A stretch of 64,000 nt of DNA from Escherichia phage moskry. Numbering within the stretch: the stretch's first letter is position 1; the number at the start of each line of letters is the position of its first letter. This document shows positions 8,276 through 53,343 of this stretch, piece by piece. The stretch lies in sequence record MN850651.1; one strand, written 5' to 3'. Both the position numbers and the translations under genes were made by a program. The notes under the pieces are model-generated. The model ran no database searches and had not been told where the DNA came from. It saw only the letters and a program-made list of their open reading frames with translations.

Positions 8276-8584
8276 TCAATTAGAAAATAAATTTATCCAA
8301 GTTTTTTCTTTAATCAAAAATGGGTCGGAATTAAACGCCATTAAACTTTGAGTGATTAATCCCTTAAATGGCCCATCAATAAATTCCATTTTGAAATGTG
8401 GAATACTAGTCATCAACCGTGCATTAGGAGCAGTACAAAGAACCTGCTGCCCTGCGAACGGACCTTTAGTCAAACGATATCGTTTAGGTTTAAAATGGTA
8501 AATCTCGTAATTTTCTACAAGGGCCCTTTTATTGCATACTGGGCTGTTATAACAATACTCAAAAACTTCAATAGTGGTCATCAT
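8276..8584 (-). CDS. Hypothetical protein
   Basis: ORF 8276..8632; ATG pair at codons 17-18 adjoins the stop of the upstream gene; about 102 aa. Confidence 0.4.
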   Translation of the reverse strand: MMTTIEVFEYCYNSPVCNKRALVENYEIYHFKPKRYRLTKGPFAGQQVLCTAPNARLMTSIPHFKMEFIDGPFKGLITQSLMAFNSDPFLIKEKTWINLFSN

Positions 8585-9120
8585 TGCATTCCAATCACAA
8601 AAAATTGAGGACGAGCAATACCGCCGTTGCAATATTTACTTTTGCAACAGTGTTGGACTGTTTTAATATGGATGTCGTAAATCTTATCCATATCAGGAGC
8701 TTTAATAGGCTCGTCAATTATATACAGAATACGAGAAAGCGTTAATCCACGGAATTTATGTCCTTCATTACCAATAAAACTACGGACAGAATCAGTAAAT
8801 AAACGGAATCGAATATCATCGCTAGAATAACGAGAAAATTCTTTTTCAATGTTGCCAGCAGAAATTTTAGCATAAGCTGAAGTATTAGAAAGAACAATAA
8901 CTGTTCCACCATCATACAGCCAATTAGCAGCAAAATTAGTTACTGCGGTCGATTTACCTGATTGTCTGCCGCCGTCTAAACGAAGTGTACAGTACTGCTT
9001 GAGTACGTCTTCGAATGGTGGGATATAACCGTTCTTACAAATTTCTTCTACTCTAGCATCAGAATGGTGTGTAAAAGCATTCATCAGGGATAGATAAGGA
9101 CCAGTTAAAAATGTTCTCAT
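8581..9120 (-). CDS. P-loop NTPase or kinase-like protein
   Basis: 179 aa; ATG start; Walker A LDGGRQSGKST. Confidence 0.5.
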   Translation of the reverse strand: MRTFLTGPYLSLMNAFTHHSDARVEEICKNGYIPPFEDVLKQYCTLRLDGGRQSGKSTAVTNFAANWLYDGGTVIVLSNTSAYAKISAGNIEKEFSRYSSDDIRFRLFTDSVRSFIGNEGHKFRGLTLSRILYIIDEPIKAPDMDKIYDIHIKTVQHCCKSKYCNGGIARPQFFVIGMQ

Positions 9121-9288
9121 TTAGTTTCTCTTAAGGTTGGGGCCATTCCATGGCGCATGAATTGTCCATTTCTGTATTTACCCATTACCGCACTTGGGCA
9201 CGACCTTATTACAGGTTGGAAAAGGTACATCACTCAGAGGACTCGACGTTCATGAGGAGAGGTTGCGTTTCCCTTTATTAGGCAAGAA

Positions 9289-9618
9289 TTATACTCTAGG
9301 CTTTTGAGCTTGTTTGGTATTGGATTCCCATGCGGCTTTGGTAATTTTGTTAGCGGCATAACCAAAGGCATTAGATAGAACACCTTTAGAGTTGAATACA
9401 TCCAATCCAATAAGTACACCGGCTGTGTTAAATTTAGGAGCAAAGTACGCATTAGTTTTAGAAAGAGCTTTTTTCAATTCAGGGTCTTGAACCAAGCTAT
9501 CAAAAACACCTTTACTATTTACTTTATATGTTACTTTGGGATTTTTACCTTCTTCGATAGCAGCTTTCTGTTCCGCAGATAATGTAACTTCAGTGATAAA
9601 CTCCTGATATGTTTTCAT
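9289..9618 (-). CDS. Internal-protein-like (capsid targeting sequence) protein
   Basis: 109 aa; N-terminus MKTYQEFITE matches the recalled T4 internal-protein CTS (MKTYQEFIAE) with an L/I-x-E cleavage context. Confidence 0.6.
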   Translation of the reverse strand: MKTYQEFITEVTLSAEQKAAIEEGKNPKVTYKVNSKGVFDSLVQDPELKKALSKTNAYFAPKFNTAGVLIGLDVFNSKGVLSNAFGYAANKITKAAWESNTKQAQKPRV

Positions 9619-9643
9619 TTTGTTCCTATTGTTTTAATTTATG

Positions 9644-9958
9644 TTATTCTTTAGGGAAGTTTTTAGAGTATGCGTCATAAAGTTTATTACCGATGCGACG
9701 GAAGACTTTAGCTGCAAAACGGTTTTCAGGGTTTTTAATCATGATTTGCATCATGTAAGTTCCTGCATCCGAAAGAGCTTCTTCATAGTACCCATTAATT
9801 TCTTTAAGAGTCCTACGTTTACCACCAGGACCATCAACAGTAATTTTCCATTTACCTGTAGAAGTGCGGCTCGGTGGCTCAACTTGTTCAATCCAAATAT
9901 AACCACCTTCAACGCGTTGGTTGGCGGATTCTGCAATAAATTCTTTATACGTTTTCAT
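9644..9958 (-). CDS. Internal-protein-like (CTS) protein
   Basis: 104 aa; N-terminus MKTYKEFIAE; basic body. Confidence 0.6.
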   Translation of the reverse strand: MKTYKEFIAESANQRVEGGYIWIEQVEPPSRTSTGKWKITVDGPGGKRRTLKEINGYYEEALSDAGTYMMQIMIKNPENRFAAKVFRRIGNKLYDAYSKNFPKE

Positions 9959-9979
9959 TTTTGTTTCCTTGTTTGTTTT

Positions 9980-10019
9980 GATAGAGTAATTATACCATAT
10001 TAATACTTAAGCGTAAACA
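9980..10019 (-). promoter_or_regulatory. Early promoter cassette (PeSL-like)
   Basis: Minus reading: GTTTAC, about 18 nt, TATAAT; directly 5' of the CTS gene starting at 9958. Confidence 0.5.
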
Positions 10020-10021
10020 AT

Positions 10022-10282
10022 TTAAGCTTTACCGCCAGAAATAATTCCGAAGTTGTTAAAATCATATCCAATATCGTCAACATCTACTTTAGGACTTGCT
10101 ACAACATAAGCAATTTCACTACGTTTTGCATAGGTGTTGATTTCTTTACCATCGCCACCTAAGAAAGAATACCCATTACGTTTTAATGAGCCAAAGTCTT
10201 CCGCATCACCAATGAAAGCTTTAACTTTAAATTTAGGGTCTTTGGCATCTGCTTCATTGATAAATTCTTGATACATTTTCAT
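10022..10282 (-). CDS. Internal-protein-like (CTS) protein
   Basis: 86 aa; N-terminus MKMYQEFINE. Confidence 0.6.
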   Translation of the reverse strand: MKMYQEFINEADAKDPKFKVKAFIGDAEDFGSLKRNGYSFLGGDGKEINTYAKRSEIAYVVASPKVDVDDIGYDFNNFGIISGGKA

Positions 10283-10288
10283 TTTTCC

Positions 10289-10702
10289 TTAGTAAATTGA
10301 TTTACCATAGTATTTGTACCAAGTCGGACGTTGAGCAATTTTTTCATCTAAGCGTGCTTGACTTATCGCAATGGACGCTTCGGACGGGACATAATTATTA
10401 CGAAATTCGGCAGGGATGTCGGAAATATCCTGGACTGTCGTGTCCTTGATTTTGAAACCACGTTTCAAGCATTCAGCGATTAGCTCGATTTGTCGTAAAC
10501 GTAAAAATTCGAGTTTGTCGTAAAAGAATGTTACGTGACCTGTGCCTAAGATAAATGTTGGAGAGATTTTAAAATCCTTTACACGTTTACCGTTTTGAAC
10601 ATGTTTACGGACTGCACCAAATACGCGTGGTAATTCACGATACTCAGCCATAAGATGTTGGTCGGCCAGTTCAGAAACAAGTGTTAAATTGATACGGGTC
10701 AT
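10289..10702 (-). CDS. denV: Endonuclease V (pyrimidine-dimer DNA glycosylase)
   Basis: ATG at codon 5 of the ORF track; 137 aa; near-identical to recalled T4 DenV ([35 protein letters not shown]...). Confidence 0.9.
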
Positions 10703-10707
10703 AATTT

Positions 10708-10760
10708 CCTCCAAGTAGTTGATGAATGTATAGTATCAAAACCCTTGGAGGAAGTAAACA
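10708..10760 (-). promoter_or_regulatory. PeSL-like cassette with SD-containing stem (upstream of denV)
   Basis: Minus reading: GTTTAC, TACTAT-like -10; arms CCTCCAAG/CTTGGAGG, the latter being the denV SD. Confidence 0.5.
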
Positions 10761-11042
10761 CTATTTTTCTGAAGCGCCTGAAATATATTTTTCAAGACGT
10801 TGTTTCATTAGCGAGCCGTTCTTAGCGATTTCTTCCGGTTTATCGCACATACGTAACAAGGCTTCAAGCTTAGCGATATCGCTAGTACGTTCAAATTTGC
10901 GAGTATCTATCTTACTAGCAAGTTCAGAAATACGTGCTAGTAGACTTTCGGCTTCAACCAAAGCTGCACCTAGCTTAGTTGCAAATGTGTCAGTAGCTTC
11001 GTTAAGAATAGATTCTGATAAAAATTCACTATATGTTTTCAT
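10761..11042 (-). CDS. Internal-protein-like (CTS) protein
   Basis: ATG at codon 6 ([10 protein letters not shown]); 93 aa; 4-nt overlap with the 3' end of gene e. Confidence 0.55.
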
Positions 11043-11527
11043 ATATACGCTTTCCAAGTTCCTGTTTTAAATGTTGAGATTACACGTTTCGCGCGATTAG
11101 GTGTCTGACGATACCATTTAGATTGGGCTAGATTTACTGCCGCTTCATCCCAACGTTTCTGATGAAGCATACGAAGAGAATTAGTAAAACCGGCGACGCC
11201 TGCTACACCCATTTGGAAGACCATATTGACCAATGCACAACGACGAACCGCATCTAAAGAATCATATACCGGTTTAAGTTTAGCATTACCCAAGATTCCG
11301 CGAACGGCTTTATCAACGTCTTCATTAAATAGCTTTTCAGCCTCATCAAGGGTAATTGTACCGTTGCATTTACGTCCGATCATTCTGTCAAGTTCAGCTT
11401 TAGCTACGGCTAAAGACGGGTTCTTTGTTACTAAATGGCCTATGCCAATCGTCCAAAAGCCTTCGGTGTCTTTGTATAAAGTCAGTCTAAGACCTTCGTC
11501 ATTACGAAGCATTTCAAATATATTCAT
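11039..11527 (-). CDS. e: Endolysin (T4 lysozyme)
   Basis: ATG at codon 5 (MNIFEMLR); 162 aa; about 80 percent identical to recalled T4 lysozyme, including DEGLRL.YKDTEG..TIGIGHL and catalytic Glu11/Asp20. Confidence 0.95.
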
Positions 11528-18845: not shown

Positions 18846-19478
18846 TTACTTACGAGTTTTTGCATACTGAGCAGCGTCAGCAGCCAAACGACCTGCCTGA
18901 CGAAGTTTTTCTTTAATCTCATCATGAAGTGGTTGAGTATACTTCAAACCTTCGATAGTCAAATAAAGACGATAAAGGTCTGGGGTATCAAGGTTGTTGA
19001 TATGTTGGCCATTACGAAGACTATTGAATTCACGAACGAGTGAAGATGTATCGGATTCAATATCACGAACAAGCGAAGATAGTTGTTTATATTTTTTTTC
19101 CAGGCTAGAAGTATCAAACTTAAGAGCAGGAGCTTTAGGAGTTGCTTTTACTTCAGGCTTAGGCTTAGGTTCAGGTTTTGCTATTGCTTTAGGGGTCGCA
19201 GGTTTAGGAATGGTAGGAGCAGGTTTTACTTTAGGCGAACCCGATTTAGCAGAAACACCACCACTAACAATATCTTTGAATGCTTTAGAAGCTCTGTAAT
19301 ATTCTTTTTGGCTGGAAGTGTCGATACCGTACATGGCTTGAACGTTTTTGAAAAACTCTGTACTAGTTTTTGTACCAGAAATAGCATCGTAAGCAGCTTG
19401 CCATTTCTCTTTTGTCATACGTACGCCGGCTTCGGTGATTACTTCCGTTTCGGCTAAAAATTCATTAAAAGTATACAT
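18846..19478 (-). CDS. Internal-protein-like (CTS) protein with Pro/Lys-rich linker
   Basis: 210 aa; N-terminus MYTFNEFLAE is CTS-like; central PKVKPAPTIPKPATPKAIAKPEPKPKPEVKATPKAP low-complexity tract. Confidence 0.55.
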   Translation of the reverse strand: MYTFNEFLAETEVITEAGVRMTKEKWQAAYDAISGTKTSTEFFKNVQAMYGIDTSSQKEYYRASKAFKDIVSGGVSAKSGSPKVKPAPTIPKPATPKAIAKPEPKPKPEVKATPKAPALKFDTSSLEKKYKQLSSLVRDIESDTSSLVREFNSLRNGQHINNLDTPDLYRLYLTIEGLKYTQPLHDEIKEKLRQAGRLAADAAQYAKTRK

Positions 19479-19513: not shown

Positions 19514-19521
19514 TATTTATA
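19514..19521 (-). promoter_or_regulatory. Late promoter (TATAAATA on minus strand)
   Basis: Plus strand TATTTATA about 36 nt upstream of ATG 19478. Confidence 0.5.
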
Positions 19522-20216: not shown

Positions 20217-20293
<77 letters not shown>

Positions 20294-20299
20294 AATATA

Positions 20300-20373
20300 T
20301 GACCCAGACCAGATTCGAACTGGTAACCTTTCCCTTATGAGGGGACTGCTGCTAACCATTGAGCTACAGGGCC
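20300..20373 (-). tRNA. tRNA with CAU anticodon (Ile or Met type)
   Basis: 74 nt; T arm ACCAG-TTCGAAT-CTGGT; anticodon loop CTCATAA; acceptor GGCCCTG/CTGGGTC with one mismatch; CCA not encoded. Confidence 0.65.
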
Positions 20374-21878: not shown

Positions 21879-22166
21879 TTACAGAAGAGTTTTTGCAATA
21901 ATTTTAAGCTGAGCTACAGAAATATGCTTAGCTTTAAACAGTGCAGTCTCTTCAGCCGGAGAGATAACAATAGTAGCGCCATCTTTCTTAGCAGACCATC
22001 CATCCCCTAAGTAAACAGTACCTTTTACTTCTTCGCCGTCAACCAGGCCAATCATTGGTTTACCCTCACGTCCTTTATTTGCTTTAATAACTTCGGAAGT
22101 AAGGGTTGCTTCGGTTAGAGTAGAAACATTAGCATCAGGTGATATAAATTCTTTATAGGTTTTCAT
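21879..22166 (-). CDS. Internal protein I-like (CTS) protein
   Basis: 95 aa; N-terminus MKTYKEFIS; adjacent to 57B as ipI is in T4; length matches recalled T4 IPI. Confidence 0.55.
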   Translation of the reverse strand: MKTYKEFISPDANVSTLTEATLTSEVIKANKGREGKPMIGLVDGEEVKGTVYLGDGWSAKKDGATIVISPAEETALFKAKHISVAQLKIIAKTLL

Positions 22167-49623: not shown

Positions 49624-51195
49624 ATGAAATTTAATATCTTAAGTTTGTTTGCTCCATGGGCAAAAATGGACGAACGTGATTACAAAGACCAAGAAAAAGA
49701 AAATTTAGAATCTATCACCACACCAAAATTAGACGACGGCGCTAAAGAATACGAAGTATCTGAAAATGAAGCACAGCAAACATATAATGCTATGTTTCAG
49801 AGAATGTTTGGTAGTCAAGAACCAGGGCTCAAATCAACCCGTGAATTAATCGATACGTATCGAAATTTGATGACGAACTATGAAGTGGATAACGCGGTCT
49901 CTGAAATAGTTTCTGATGCTATCGTGTATGAAGATGATACAGAAGTCGTTTCTATAAATTTAGACAACACAAAATTTAGTCCAAATATAAAATCAATGAT
50001 GTTGGATGAATTTAACGAAGTGTTGAATCATTTATCTTTCCAACGTAAAGGTTCAGACCATTTTAGGCGTTGGTATGTAGATTCTCGAATTTTCTTCCAT
50101 AAAATTATTGACCCTAAACGCCCTAAAGAAGGTATTAAAGAGCTTCGTCGTTTAGACCCACGTCAAGTTCAATATGTCCGTGAAGTTATTACAACCACTG
50201 AAGCCGGTGTTAAAATAGTCAAGGGTTATAAAGAATATTTCATTTATGACACATCACACGAATCTTATGCTTGTGATGGTCGCATATATGAAGCTGGCAC
50301 AAAAATAAAAATCCCTAAAGCCGCGATTGTTTACGCCCATTCTGGTTTAGTTGATTGTTGTGGTAAAAATATCATCGGTTATTTGCATCGGGCTATTAAG
50401 CCAGCGAACCAATTAAAACTTCTTGAAGATGCTGTCGTAATTTATCGTATTACTCGTGCTCCCGATCGTCGTGTATGGTACGTTGATACAGGTAATATGC
50501 CTTCAAGAAAAGCAGCAGAACATATGCAACATGTTATGAATACGATGAAAAACCGTATTGCATATGATGCTACTACAGGCAAGATTAAAAACCAGCAGCA
50601 TATTATGTCGATGACCGAAGATTATTGGTTACAACGACGTGATGGTAAAGCAGTAACAGAAGTTGATACATTACCAGGCGCAGATAATACCGGAAATATG
50701 GAAGATGTACGTTGGTTCCGTAATGCGCTTTATATGGCTTTACGTATTCCTATTACCCGTATTCCAAGTGACCAAGGTGGTATACAGTTTGATGCTGGTA
50801 CTTCTATTACACGAGATGAATTGTCATTTGGTAAATTTATTCGTGAGCTGCAACATAAATTTGAAGAGATATTCCTAGACCCGCTTAAAACCAATTTAAT
50901 TCTTAAAGGAATTATTACAGAAGATGAGTGGAATGATGAAATAAATAATATTAAGATAAAATTTCATCGGGATAGTTATTTCTCGGAATTAAAGGATGCT
51001 GAGATTCTGGAGCGTCGCATTAATATGCTTCAGATGGCCGAACCATTTATTGGTAAATATATTTCTCACAGAACAGCTATGAAAGATATTCTTCAGATGT
51101 CTGACGAGGAAATTGAACAAGAGGCTAAGCAAATTGAAGAAGAGTCGAAAGAGGCTCGTTTCCAAGACCCCGACCAAGAACAAGAGGATTTTTAA
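49624..51195 (+). CDS. 20: Portal vertex protein gp20
   Basis: 523 aa (T4 gp20 is 524); gene order. Confidence 0.9.
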
Positions 51196-51431
51196 TGGAC
51201 GATTTAATTCAAGCTATTAAATCAAACGACCTCGTTGCTACTCGAAAGTTTTTTGAAAGTGCAATGGCAGAAAAAACGGTTCGTTTGATTGAAGCACGCA
51301 AAGCAGAAATCGCTTCTCAATTTTTGATTGAAGGCGAAGAACCTGAAGAAGAAAAGAAAGCTAAAGCTTCGGAAGACGACGCTGATGAAGGCGATGACGA
51401 CGAAGACGAAGATGATGAGGACGATGAATAA
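51195..51431 (+). CDS. 67: Prohead core protein gp67
   Basis: 78 aa with a poly-acidic C-terminal tail ([18 protein letters not shown]); position between 20 and 68. Confidence 0.75.
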
Positions 51432-51856
51432 TGTATCTTATCCCTGAATCTTATGAATTGGTACTCGAAAATGTCGAAGCACTTATTCCTGAAGCACAGG
51501 GCCGAATCGATGCATTGTCTTCTGCTCTCGATATTGACGATATAAATACTATTATCGAGAACATGCTTGAAACTGAAACGGATTTAGCTGTTGCAATGGC
51601 TTCCATTATTAATGAAGAACAGTTAAATGAGTTTATTGTTAAACATGTTTCTTCTCGTGGTGAAGTCACCCGCACTAAAGACCGTAAAACTCGTGAACGT
51701 AATGCGTTCCAAACCACTGGTCTTTCTAAAGCAAAACGTAGACAAATCGCTCGTAAGGTCGTTAAAGCTAAAAAAGCTAACCCTTCAGGCCAAGTTAAAG
51801 GCTTGCGTAAGCGTAAAAAGGCTCTTAAACGTCGTAAAGCATTAGGATTAAGCTAA
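51431..51856 (+). CDS. 68: Prohead core protein gp68
   Basis: 141 aa, the T4 gp68 length; basic C-terminus. Confidence 0.75.
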
Positions 51857-52497
51857 TGAATAAACCCGAGTTACTTATTGAAACTTGGGGTCAACCCGGT
51901 GAGATTATTGATGGCGTTCCAATGTTGGAATCTCATGATGGAAAAGATTCTGGCTTAAAACCAGGGCTTTATATAGAAGGTATTTTTCTTCAGGCAGAGG
52001 TTGTTAACCGAAATAAACGTTTATATCCTAAACGCGTTTTGGAAAAAGCAGTAAGTGACTATATTAAAGAACAAGTCGCAACCAAACAAGCCCTTGGAGA
52101 ATTAAACCATCCACCTCGTGCAAATGTTGACCCTATGCAAGCCGCTATCATTATTGAAGATATGTGGTGGAAAGGAAACGATGTATATGGACGTGCTAGA
52201 ATTATTGAAGGCGACCATGGTCCCGGCGATAAATTAGCTGCTAATATACGAGCTGGTTGGATTCCAGGTGTTTCCTCTCGTGGTCTTGGTTCTTTAACCG
52301 ACACCAATAAAGGGTACCGTATCGTGAACGAAGGATTTAAATTAACCGTCGGCGTAGATGCCGTATGGGGACCTTCTGCTCCAGATGCTTGGGTTACTCC
52401 TAAACAAATATCAGAATCAGAAAATTCGGTGGAAATCACCAAAAACAGTGCTGACGAAGCATTTAAAGCTCTCGCAGAGAGTTTAAAAGCATTATAA
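51856..52497 (+). CDS. 21: Prohead core scaffold protease gp21
   Basis: 213 aa (T4 gp21 is 212); gene order 68-21-22-23. Confidence 0.85.
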   Translation: MNKPELLIETWGQPGEIIDGVPMLESHDGKDSGLKPGLYIEGIFLQAEVVNRNKRLYPKRVLEKAVSDYIKEQVATKQALGELNHPPRANVDPMQAAIIIEDMWWKGNDVYGRARIIEGDHGPGDKLAANIRAGWIPGVSSRGLGSLTDTNKGYRIVNEGFKLTVGVDAVWGPSAPDAWVTPKQISESENSVEITKNSADEAFKALAESLKAL

Positions 52498-52500
52498 ATA
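52493..52500 (+). promoter_or_regulatory. Late promoter TATAAATA for gene 22
   Basis: Exact TATAAATA overlapping the gene 21 stop, 31 nt upstream of ATG 52531. Confidence 0.6.
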
Positions 52501-52530
52501 ATAATGTAATCTAAACCACAGGACACTAAA

Positions 52531-53343
52531 ATGATCAAAGAACAACTTTTGAAAGAAGCTCAGAACATCGAGACTTCAGTTGCTCTTAATAGTGTTTTCG
52601 AATCAGTAGAACTGTCTCCGGACGTTAAAGCTAATTTCAGCACTGTATTCGAAGCCACCGTTAAGCAGGAAGCAGTCAAACTGGCTGAATCTCATATCAA
52701 AGCCATCGCCGAAAAGGCCGAAGAAGAAGTTGAAAAGGCTAAAGAAGATGCTGAAGAGAAAGCTGATAAAAAATTGGCTGAACAAGCTTCTAAATTCCTA
52801 GACCATCTTGCAAAAGAATGGCTCGCAGAAAACCAAATCGCAGTTGATAAAGGCATTAAAGCTGATTTGTTCGAATCCATGCTTGGTGGTCTGAAAGAAC
52901 TGTTTGTTGAACATAACGTTGTTGTTCCAGAAGAATCCGTAGATGTTGTAGCAGAAATGGAAGAAGAGCTGGCCGAACATAAAGAAGAAACCGCTCGTTT
53001 GTTCGAAGAAGTTACCAAACGTGATGCATATATCAATTACGTTCAGCGTGAAACCGCTATTAATGAAAGCGTAAAAGACCTGACTGAATCTCAGAAAGAA
53101 AAAGTTATTGGCCTGGTTGAAGGTATGGATTATTCTGACGCATTTGGTACTAAGTTAACTGCTATTGTAGAAATGGTTAAAGGTTCTACTAAAGAAGAAG
53201 CCGCTATTACCGAAAGTATAAATACAGTTGACAATGACGCTGCCGGTCTTAATTTTGTTGCCGAAGCAGTTGACACTACCACAACTCAGGTAGAACAGAA
53301 TTCTAATGTAAGTTTATATGCGAAAGTCGCATCTCGTTTCTAA
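52531..53343 (+). CDS. 22: Prohead core scaffold protein gp22
   Basis: 270 aa (T4 gp22 is 269); acidic coiled coil. Confidence 0.85.
   Translation: MIKEQLLKEAQNIETSVALNSVFESVELSPDVKANFSTVFEATVKQEAVKLAESHIKAIAEKAEEEVEKAKEDAEEKADKKLAEQASKFLDHLAKEWLAENQIAVDKGIKADLFESMLGGLKELFVEHNVVVPEESVDVVAEMEEELAEHKEETARLFEEVTKRDAYINYVQRETAINESVKDLTESQKEKVIGLVEGMDYSDAFGTKLTAIVEMVKGSTKEEAAITESINTVDNDAAGLNFVAEAVDTTTTQVEQNSNVSLYAKVASRF
53217..53224 (+). promoter_or_regulatory. Candidate late promoter TATAAATA within the 3' end of gene 22 (for gene 23)
   Basis: Exact TATAAATA about 137 nt upstream of ATG 53361. Confidence 0.45.

Follow-up and report, generated by a model that had tools for sequence, protein, structure and literature searches.

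The internal proteins of T4-type phages are known biology (Repoila et al. 1994; Rao & Black 2010, PMC3012670; Silas et al. 2025, PMC12373910). Those of T4 are small and dispensable, and each inhibits one variant of GmrSD, with Ip1, Ip2 and Ip3 each acting on a distinct one (PMC12373910). In work dated 2025, the T-even internal proteins examined to date all block a single, specific type IV restriction enzyme each, and Silas et al. propose GmrSD variants as the targets of everything encoded at both Ip loci (PMC12373910). A fourth leader-bearing protein with a known target, Bas37_0260, inhibits McrBC (10.1101/2025.11.20.689424). Targeting depends on Phe7 of the leader and on an aromatic residue at its fourth position, and processing by gp21 depends on I/L8 and Glu10 (PMC9026906, summarising Mullaney & Black 1996). 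GmrSD enzymes cleave RB69 DNA, which contains arabinosyl-hmC (PMC6024577). A four-gene ip array, Ip5-Ip9-Ip7-Ip8 of RB15, was deposited in 1994 (Z35082; Repoila et al. 1994).

The window analysed here corresponds to 64,000 nucleotides of Escherichia phage moskry, a Mosigvirus with 97-98% identity to RB69 relatives. It includes four leader-bearing genes around denV. It is likely that they encode T4-type internal proteins that are packaged, injected and, most likely, block first-line nucleases of the host. The four genes are real and uncharacterised, and would be ordinary members of a long-known class of injected anti-restriction proteins. The literature and databases already cover the concept and the locus as well as most of the families, and the result is a candidate list, not a discovery.

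Array layout and comparison with described Ip loci

The sequence-only reading had placed four ORFs with MK(T/M)Y(Q/K/S)EF(I/L)xE starts around denV, and all are present (Table 1). All four lie within the Ip hotspot vs.8-denV-e, the other hotspot being 57B-trna.4. They are encoded on the minus strand, a point absent from that reading. denV itself is a conserved housekeeping gene located inside the hotspot and outside the array.

Table 1. Features of the window discussed in the text (arrows mark the gp21-type cleavage site)
Feature	Position	Strand	Remarks
Candidate internal protein, RB69ORF123c family, 109 aa	9289-9618	minus	leader MKTYQEFITE↓V
Ip10-family internal protein, 104 aa	9644-9958	minus	leader MKTYKEFIAE↓S
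Early-type (sigma-70-like) promoter TTTACG-17-TG-TATAAT	9989-10017	minus	upstream of the Ip10-family gene
Internal head protein candidate, RB69ORF125c / phrog_2667 family, 86 aa	10022-10282	minus	leader MKMYQEFINE↓A
denV (endonuclease V)	10289-10702	minus	92% aa identity to T4
Ip5-like internal protein, 93 aa	10761-11042	minus	10-residue leader ending LSE↓S
e lysozyme	11039-11527		next after the Ip5-like gene
210-aa protein with degenerate leader	18846-19478	minus	leader MYTFNEFLAE↓T; second ITE↓A site
Perfect T4 late promoter TATAAATA	19514-19521	minus	43 nt upstream of the 210-aa ORF
IPI ortholog, second Ip hotspot beside 57B	21879-22166	minus	leader MKTYKEFIS...LTE↓A; 93% identity to T4 IPI; Pfam IPI_T4 1e-49
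Prohead core genes 67, 68, (21), 22	51195-53340	plus	tblastn: gp67 60% (partial), gp68 81%, gp22 77%
Gene 21 prohead protease	51856-52488	plus	tblastn: 88% identity to T4 gp21

Gene order was compared with T4, SP18, AnYang, PG7, Kosakonia 305 and S16. The comparison with T4 bears out the earlier count of two such genes in T4 against four here: the T4 order is vs.8-denV-ipII-ipIII-e, whereas the window has three of the genes in the vs.8-denV interval and the fourth in the denV-e interval. T4 IPII and IPIII resemble the four array proteins in their hotspot, their leader with its I-x-E site (MKTYQEFIAE↓A) and their small size. However, their bodies show no similarity to the four by BLASTP or hhalign. 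True IPII/IPIII homologs are additionally found in some Mosigviruses (S143_2) and Dhakaviruses (AnYang).

The polymorphic Ip arrays of T-even phages, such as that of RB15, likewise present up to four unrelated small leader-bearing genes in tandem. However, the RB15 array occupies the 57B-trna.4 hotspot, which in the window holds only an IPI ortholog, and the Ip5-like gene has here moved to the e-denV gap. An array of four ip genes is not unusual, since RB15 has four at the ipI locus and both AnYang and S143_2 carry five leader-bearing genes at vs.8-denV-e. T4 IPI (PF11634) differs by its 19-residue leader, compared to 10 residues in the four array genes, none of which matches PF11634. Bas37_0260 (KarlGJung, MZ501089) combines a shared leader (MKTYQEFIAE↓T), a small size and an Ip-hotspot location with proven activity against type IV restriction, but its matches to window proteins are confined to the first 10-17 residues. 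The gene neighbouring Bas37_0260 is Ip5.

Across seven genera, the vs.8-e interval includes one to five leader-bearing genes, and the 34 ORFs concerned represent 13 body families. At 90% identity or more, the RB69ORF123c-family gene occurs in about 76 phage records, the Ip10-family gene in about 131, the RB69ORF125c-family gene in about 154 and the Ip5-like gene in about 234, while the complete four-gene arrangement is found in 73 records only. S143_2 carries an extra cassette, an IPIII homolog, inserted precisely between two leader-bearing genes. The array probably corresponds to a set of interchangeable cassettes that are gained, lost and swapped between T-even genera.

Leader peptide and head-processing machinery

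The leader MKTYQEFIAE, which the sequence-only reading had given for T4, is the exact N-terminus of IPII and IPIII in NC_000866. The N-terminal similarity also exceeds chance: the pattern MKxYxEF[ILVM] has five six-frame matches in the window and none in each of 100 shuffles. Y4 and F7 occur in all four array proteins, the Glu announced within the first ten residues is Glu10, and positions 8-11 carry the gp21 motif, (I/L)-x-E with a small residue after it (ITE↓V, IAE↓S, INE↓A and LSE↓S). Among 32 distinct leaders drawn from 10 phages and the window, M1, Y/F4 and F7 are each found in 32/32, I/L8 in 30/32 and E10 in 28/32. Conserved residues use differing synonymous codons (among the six window genes, ACA, ACG, ACC or ACT for Thr3, ATC, ATT or ATA for Ile8 and GAG or GAA for Glu6), and selection on the leader therefore acts at the peptide level.

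The common N-terminus could alternatively serve mainly as a junction for recombination at the DNA level, by which cassettes are moved, some of the four proteins then being cytoplasmic and never present in the head. Any two genes share 20-25 of the 30 nucleotides that encode the leader and have similar RBS regions, which could provide short homology for exchange. The exact placement of the S143_2 cassette between two leader-bearing genes, and the scrambled leader in ORF127c that the RB69 reference tolerates, point in the same direction. The leader lesions of this reference (AY303349), which concern ORF123c, ORF124c and ORF127c, may reflect either decay in the laboratory or errors of the 2003 sequencing. 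However, the differing synonymous codons argue against a junction, conservation is maximal exactly at the positions defined experimentally for targeting and processing, and the leader is kept in homologs whose overall identity falls to 33-55%. Moreover, ten residues are enough to package foreign proteins in T4 (PMC9026906). This alternative appears very unlikely.

The window also encodes the head-processing machinery with which a targeting leader would interact (Table 1), and its gp23 and gp24 retain the T4 cleavage sites (FLTE↓A and LLRE↓S respectively). gp21 is the protease expected to remove the leaders, and the gp22/gp67/gp68 core is the scaffold to which the leader is expected to direct the proteins. 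Each protein would be made as a precursor with a capsid-targeting sequence of about 10 residues (consensus M-K-T-Y/F-x-E-F-I/L-x-E) that would bind the gp22/gp67/gp68 scaffold during prohead assembly. Cleavage by gp21 after Glu10 would free the mature proteins (76-99 residues), which would then lie among the packaged DNA. At infection, these would be ejected with the genome, ahead of any phage gene expression. The earlier proposal that the four are candidates for virion-packaged proteins is thus supported at the sequence level by the leader, the machinery, the hotspot location and the named relatives Ip10 and Ip5. Packaging, cleavage and injection themselves are proposed from experiments with T4 IPI-III and CTS fusions. 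A literature search found no virion proteomics for an RB69-like phage.

Bodies of the four proteins and their probable targets

The mature bodies had been described as unrelated to each other. This agrees with leader-stripped BLASTP, which gave no match, and with hhalign of family alignments, where probabilities of 70-95% were obtained only at columns 1-11/20 with the leader and fell below 3% without it. The RB69ORF123c-family and Ip10-family proteins are both assigned to phrog_3966 and were considered as tandem duplicates, a possibility ruled out by leader-stripped hhalign (0.2% probability); the two were evidently merged in this family via the leader. Within the genus, synonymous differences far exceed nonsynonymous ones, which indicates that the array ORFs are real genes.

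The RB69ORF123c-family protein (predicted mature length 99 aa, pI 9.7) has homologs in 90 phage records, about 76 of them at 95% identity or more, and is 'hypothetical' in all but one, mislabelled, of the records among the matches listed. It forms only 2 clusters at 50% identity among 1.84 billion representatives and is confined to two genera. Its pN/pS ranges from 0.07 to 0.42 in comparison with other Mosigviruses. HMMER matches to large repetitive proteins were rejected as spurious (BLASTP E>1, incoherent Pfam content), and local alignments at about 34% to SP18 and T4 ORFs are anchored in the leader and not significant.

The Ip10-family protein (predicted mature length 94 aa, pI 9.6) shows 72% identity to SP18 Ip10 over the full 104 aa (E 3e-46), with homologs at 53-57% identity at the same locus in Karamvirus and Kanagawavirus. 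Comparison of its gene with that of APCEc01, which like ST2 is a near-identical isolate, identified 6 synonymous and 0 nonsynonymous differences.

The RB69ORF125c-family protein (predicted mature length 76 aa, pI 5.2) matches phrog_2667, 'internal head protein' (1e-21), and carries the same label in RefSeq. It is found in 219 records, and homologs at 67-74% identity in Gaprivervirus and Gelderlandvirus are labelled internal head protein.

The Ip5-like protein (predicted mature length 83 aa, pI 6.3) exhibits 48% identity over 84 aa to Ip5 of RB15 (Z35082), PST and Bas37 (E 2e-15 by tblastn, 1e-18 for the body alone) and matches phrog_3499, 'internal head protein' (2e-46). The acidic to neutral pI of these last two mature proteins, unlike that of the basic T4 internal proteins, is an observation that counts against the internal-protein reading.

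Searches with all four proteins gave nothing below E=0.08 against PDB sequences and sub-threshold noise only against Pfam (NUMOD1 0.072, CsgH 0.074). The families are narrow and do not yield deep alignments. AlphaFold2 mean pLDDT was 45.6 for the Ip10-family protein (4-sequence alignment) and 43.2 for the RB69ORF125c-family protein (7 sequences), values too low to inform on the fold or to support docking.

According to an older view, such proteins would be packaged with no specific host target, serving as DNA counter-ions or as packaging or ejection aids in the head. Two of the mature proteins are indeed basic (15-16 Lys+Arg), and solid-state NMR shows that internal-protein lysines touch DNA phosphates in T4 heads (PMC3012670). 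However, the other two are acidic or neutral, the unrelated folds are under purifying selection, which a generic counter-ion would not need, and gene presence varies even within the genus. Specific targets are moreover found for all characterised members. A purely structural role is quite unlikely.

The sequence-only reading had proposed the four as candidates for the class that includes IPI. This is supported at the level of the sequence and is established biology, which that reading had missed. Each body is probably an inhibitor that binds a single variant of a first-line host nuclease active on arabinosyl-hmC DNA, the leading candidates being type IV enzymes of the GmrSD/BrxU family, McrBC and enzymes like them. 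By comparison with the characterised members, the four would most likely counter type IV restriction of arabinosyl-hmC DNA in a subtype-specific manner. The target class is assigned purely by analogy, because the bodies are unrelated to those of IPI (PF11634), IPII, IPIII and Bas37_0260: BLASTP, Pfam and hhalign identified no homology beyond the leader.

In a variant of this explanation, which is not exclusive of it, the proteins are packaged and injected but at least some target defences other than type IV restriction (type I/III R-M, BREX, RecBCD-like nucleases, abortive-infection sensors or an undescribed arabinosyl-hmC-specific nuclease). The four bodies are unrelated to any characterised type IV inhibitor, two of them are acidic or neutral, and the proven range already grew from GmrSD to McrBC in 2025 (10.1101/2025.11.20.689424). 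Mosigvirus DNA furthermore bears arabinose, not glucose (PMC6024577, PMC8594841), and its enemies may therefore differ. However, all four leader-bearing proteins of known target inhibit type IV restriction enzymes, and the proposal of Silas et al. for both Ip loci involves GmrSD variants throughout. We regard this variant as tentative and rather doubtful. It is possible, although we would not expect it, that at least one of the four bodies inhibits something beyond GmrSD/McrBC, either an arabinosyl-hmC-specific nuclease or a non-restriction defence. The best candidates would be the RB69ORF123c-family protein, restricted to two genera, and the acidic RB69ORF125c-family protein. If so, the Mosigvirus array would provide a new anti-defence specificity, and with it a tool for finding the host system that is countered.

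The survival of a hypermodified genome during its first seconds in a wild host depends on injected proteins, because they act before phage gene expression. RB69-like phages carry at least four further leader-bearing proteins together with a fifth, unlabelled candidate. Such proteins are ready probes for host nucleases that attack arabinosylated DNA, and the internal-protein repertoire bears on host-range prediction for Mosigvirus therapeutic phages.

Expression and leader-bearing genes outside the array

The early-type promoter upstream of the Ip10-family gene is the best promoter match of the region (10/12 with an extended -10). It probably also drives the RB69ORF123c-family gene, located behind the Ip10-family gene after a 25-nt gap. 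The GTTTAC...TAnnAT architecture is also observed at T4 ipI, ipII, ipIII and denV. The RB69ORF125c-family gene starts 6 nt past the denV stop, suggesting that the two are probably co-transcribed, and the ATG of the Ip5-like gene overlaps the e stop codon (ATGA), suggesting translational coupling to e. Transcription would thus probably involve early-type promoters, their own for the Ip10-family and RB69ORF123c-family genes and that of denV for the RB69ORF125c-family gene, with e transcripts for the Ip5-like gene. Expression would have to persist until prohead assembly. No perfect T4 late promoter was found within the cluster, which counts against the internal-protein reading. As in T4, the proteins must be supplied at the late stage by read-through or from early-type promoters. 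An Rfam scan of the 8-23 kb region identified two tRNAs only.

Two further leader-bearing ORFs had been reported elsewhere in the window, and both are present. The first, with a 19-residue leader, is the IPI ortholog; its presence indicates that the source phage demonstrably uses the internal-protein strategy. The RB69 IPI homolog has been published as a GmrSD inhibitor homolog (PMC6024577, PMC13326640).

The second encodes a 210-aa protein with a Pro/Lys/Ala-rich linker. It belongs to phrog_2280, of unknown function, and occurs in 143 records, being labelled 'hypothetical protein' in every record among the matches listed. Its leader persists in homologs with as little as 33% overall identity, and the Dhakavirus homolog reads MKTYNEFLNES. 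These features make it an unlabelled candidate for a packaged protein. The late promoter TATAAATA upstream of the ORF is present at 3/4 homologous loci.

Leader conservation and unrelated bodies

The region around denV is a run of minus-strand genes, read in the order nudE, e, 10761-11042, denV, 10022-10282, 9644-9958, 9289-9618 and vs.8. The four leader-bearing ORFs claimed by the sequence-only reading lie exactly where it placed them, and a six-frame scan recovered the two it announced elsewhere. Their N-terminal similarity exceeds chance, MKxYxEF[ILVM] having five matches in the window and none in any of 100 shuffles. All four cluster proteins show an (I/L)-x-E|small-residue site at positions 8-11 (the bar marks the expected gp21 cleavage point). 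Between the last of these genes and vs.8, 168 nt (9121-9288) are without annotated gene, and simple scans of their minus strand identified neither terminator nor promoter.

Leader-bearing ORFs of the window and genes surrounding the array
Feature	Coordinates	Strand	Length (aa)	N-terminus	Source
vs.8	8581-9120	-
Cluster ORF	9289-9618	-	109	MKTYQEFITEV
Cluster ORF	9644-9958	-	104	MKTYKEFIAES
Cluster ORF	10022-10282	-	86	MKMYQEFINEA
denV	10289-10702	-
Cluster ORF	10761-11042	-	93	leader-bearing
e (lysozyme)	11039-11527	-
Further ORF	18846-19478	-	210	MYTFNEFLAE|T	six-frame scan, whole window
Further ORF	21879-22166	-		MKTYKEFIS…LTE|A	six-frame scan, whole window

Stripped of their first 11 residues, 34 ORFs with the leader, drawn from the window and from ten loci of nine other phages in seven genera, fall into 13 BLASTP families. 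In profile-profile comparisons of eight families, most pairs reach 70-95% probability when the leader is included, the alignment being confined to columns 1-11 to 1-20, and every pair falls below 3% when it is removed. The bodies of the four cluster proteins share no detectable similarity, as the earlier reading had held. The grouping of 9289-9618 with 9644-9958 in phrog_3966 (PHROGs v4) was rejected: their body profiles score below 3%, and the group appears to merge two unrelated families solely via the 10-residue leader, a caution for PHROGs-based annotation of internal proteins.

Among 32 distinct leaders, Met1, Tyr/Phe4 and Phe7 are present throughout (32/32 each), followed by Ile/Leu8 (30/32), Glu6 (29/32) and Glu10 (28/32). 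These include the positions that amber suppression found important, 4 and 7 for targeting and 8 and 10 for processing (PMC9026906, reviewing Mullaney & Black 1996). Synonymous codons vary between the leader genes of the window (Thr3 ACA/ACG/ACC/ACT; Ile8 ATC/ATT/ATA; Glu6 GAG/GAA); selection therefore maintains the peptide and not the DNA stretch. A role of the leader as nothing more than a recombination junction is contradicted both by this codon pattern and by the position-specific conservation.

Family assignments and cassette turnover

The T4 leader given in the earlier reading is exact, since IPII and IPIII, located between denV and e, both start MKTYQEFIAE|A (NC_000866). The vs.8-e interval indeed holds two leader genes in T4 against four in the window; Kosakonia phage 305 and S16 also carry two, PG7 one, SP18 three, and AnYang and S143_2 five. 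ORF 21879-22166 is 93% identical to T4 IPI (Pfam IPI_T4, 1e-49) and, like T4 ipI, adjoins 57B. Only two tRNA genes (Arg-TCT, Met-CAT; 20217-20373, minus strand) occur where T4 has eight tRNAs and segB. Body similarity between the four cluster proteins and IPI, IPII or IPIII was not detectable, and searches of PDB and Pfam gave no relatives; structure predictions were of low confidence (pLDDT 45.6 for 9644-9958, 43.2 for 10022-10282).

ORF 9644-9958 is 72% identical over its full length to a protein of Shigella phage SP18 deposited as Ip10, a name derived from Ip10 of phage Pol; Karamvirus and Kanagawavirus carry homologs (53-57%) at the same locus. ORF 10761-11042 and the RB15 protein Ip5 share 48% identity; the RB15 record (Z35082, "DNA for Ip5, Ip9, Ip7, Ip8") stems from Repoila et al. 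1994, and Yersinia phage PST has the Ip5 gene as ipV. Tequatrovirus carries the Ip5 family at the other hotspot, beside 57B, whereas the Ip5-like gene of the window follows e. ORF 10022-10282 falls in phrog_2667, annotated "internal head protein", with 67-74% homologs of the same label in VR7, SP18 and S16. ORF 9289-9618 stands apart: only 90 phage records contain it, and among the matches listed every one calls it "hypothetical" except a single mislabelled record. It has one distant relative group (33-41% identity, Dhakavirus) and only two 50%-identity clusters among 1.84 billion representatives. Its body contains a near-repeat (VNSKGVFDSLV, residues 33-43; FNSKGVLSNAF, 75-85) that hints at a two-repeat architecture. 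In vB_EcoM_ESCO10 (L011 2501-3168) the 9289-9618 and Ip7 homologs are labelled "RNA polymerase ADP-ribosylase / ADP-ribosyltransferase"; neighbouring genes are also implausibly labelled, and these look like annotation errors, not functional evidence.

The internal-protein class is textbook, and the finding re-derives known biology, since three of the four families already bear an internal-protein label and descriptions of four-gene arrays date from 1994.

Over the 2.5 kb of the cluster, identity to RB69 and to many further Mosigvirus genomes is 97-98%. Its ORFs correspond to RB69ORF123c, 124c, 125c and 127c, all "hypothetical" in the 2003 record; the RefSeq re-annotation of the near-identical APCEc01 already gives the homologs of 125c and 127c the label "internal head protein". 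The papers searched contained neither a discussion of RB69 ORF123c-127c nor virion proteomics of an RB69-like phage. In the RB69 reference (AY303349; L001 3166-3447, 1693-2022, 2091-2363), three of the four genes carry lesions: in ORF127c, a -1 deletion past codon 4 and a +1 insertion 22 nt on scramble only the leader core (MKTY-MNFYQNLS-LNE); ORF123c has T9A and E10A, losing the cleavage Glu; ORF124c is truncated C-terminally (90 aa versus 104). All three are intact in the window and in APCEc01 and S143_2, both wild isolates. The lesions reflect either laboratory-passage decay of dispensable injected proteins or 2003 sequence errors.

Differences from other Mosigviruses are overwhelmingly synonymous (pN/pS 0-0.4 in all four; 6 synonymous and 0 nonsynonymous in each of 9644-9958 and 10761-11042 against APCEc01), and the genes are therefore real and maintained. 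The diversity of the array arises through cassette turnover instead of coding change. At identities of at least 90%, 9289-9618 occurs in about 76 records, 9644-9958 in about 131, 10022-10282 in about 154 and 10761-11042 in about 234; only 73 have the whole arrangement. In S143_2 (Mosigvirus; L008 862-1440) an additional, fifth cassette encoding a 192-aa IPIII homolog sits precisely between the 9289-9618 and 9644-9958 homologs, which shows that within this genus cassettes insert at the boundaries of leader genes.

Predicted processing, expression and possible targets

The window encodes a prohead protease gp21 (88% identity to T4), portal gp20, core gp67 and gp68, scaffold gp22, gp23 and gp24; gp21 sites are retained in gp23 (FLTE|AEIGG) and gp24 (LLRE|S). 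The sequences strongly support a model in which the leader directs packaging into the head, gp21 would trim it after Glu10, and the trimmed proteins would be ejected with the DNA; this very probably applies to three or more of the cluster proteins. The earlier interpretation as candidate virion-packaged, injected proteins is right, packaging and function being what we infer. The older view of internal proteins as counter-ions or structural components fits poorly: the bodies are not related to one another, selection maintains them, and some are acidic (pI 5.2 and 6.3).

No perfect late promoter (TATAAATA) occurs within the cluster. The best promoter is early-type (TTTACG-17-TG-TATAAT, 10017-9989), upstream of 9644-9958, and shares the GTTTAC…TAnnAT architecture of T4 ipI, ipII, ipIII and denV. 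ORF 9289-9618 follows 25 nt downstream of 9644-9958, and 10022-10282 follows denV by 6 nt. The ATG of 10761-11042 overlaps the e stop codon (ATGA, 11039-11042), which suggests translational coupling of this candidate injected protein to a late lysis enzyme.

T4 Ip1, Ip2 and Ip3 each block a different GmrSD type IV enzyme, without cross-protection (Silas et al. 2025, PMC12373910), and the leader-bearing Bas37_0260, from the ipI locus, is a McrBC inhibitor (2025 preprint, 10.1101/2025.11.20.689424). In KarlGJung (MZ501089) this locus encodes the 77-aa Bas37_0260 and an Ip5 identical to that of RB15. Bas37_0260 matches the window proteins within the leader only; with no body match to it or to IPI, IPII or IPIII, none of the four genes has a homolog of known target. 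By analogy with all four characterised cases, the cluster proteins have about an even chance of being inhibitors of type IV restriction enzymes; that some target other defences seems rather unlikely. RB69 DNA carries arabinosyl-hmC and is cut by GmrSD enzymes, a context in which its IPI homolog is discussed (PMC6024577, PMC13326640). For anti-restriction screens in phages whose DNA is arabinosylated, the finding leaves a short, well-defined list of candidates: the 210-aa ORF (18846-19478) and the four cluster genes, above all the unlabelled 9289-9618.

The 210-aa ORF

This ORF may represent an unrecognised packaged-protein family. It matches 143 records, "hypothetical protein" throughout the matches listed, and has no T4 homolog. 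Its degenerate leader is accompanied by a second site (ITE|AG) and a Pro/Lys/Ala-rich linker, and a perfect late promoter (19514-19521) lies directly ahead. The leader is kept in homologs down to 33% identity in four genera, and that of Dhakavirus IME281 is fully canonical (MKTYNEFLNES).
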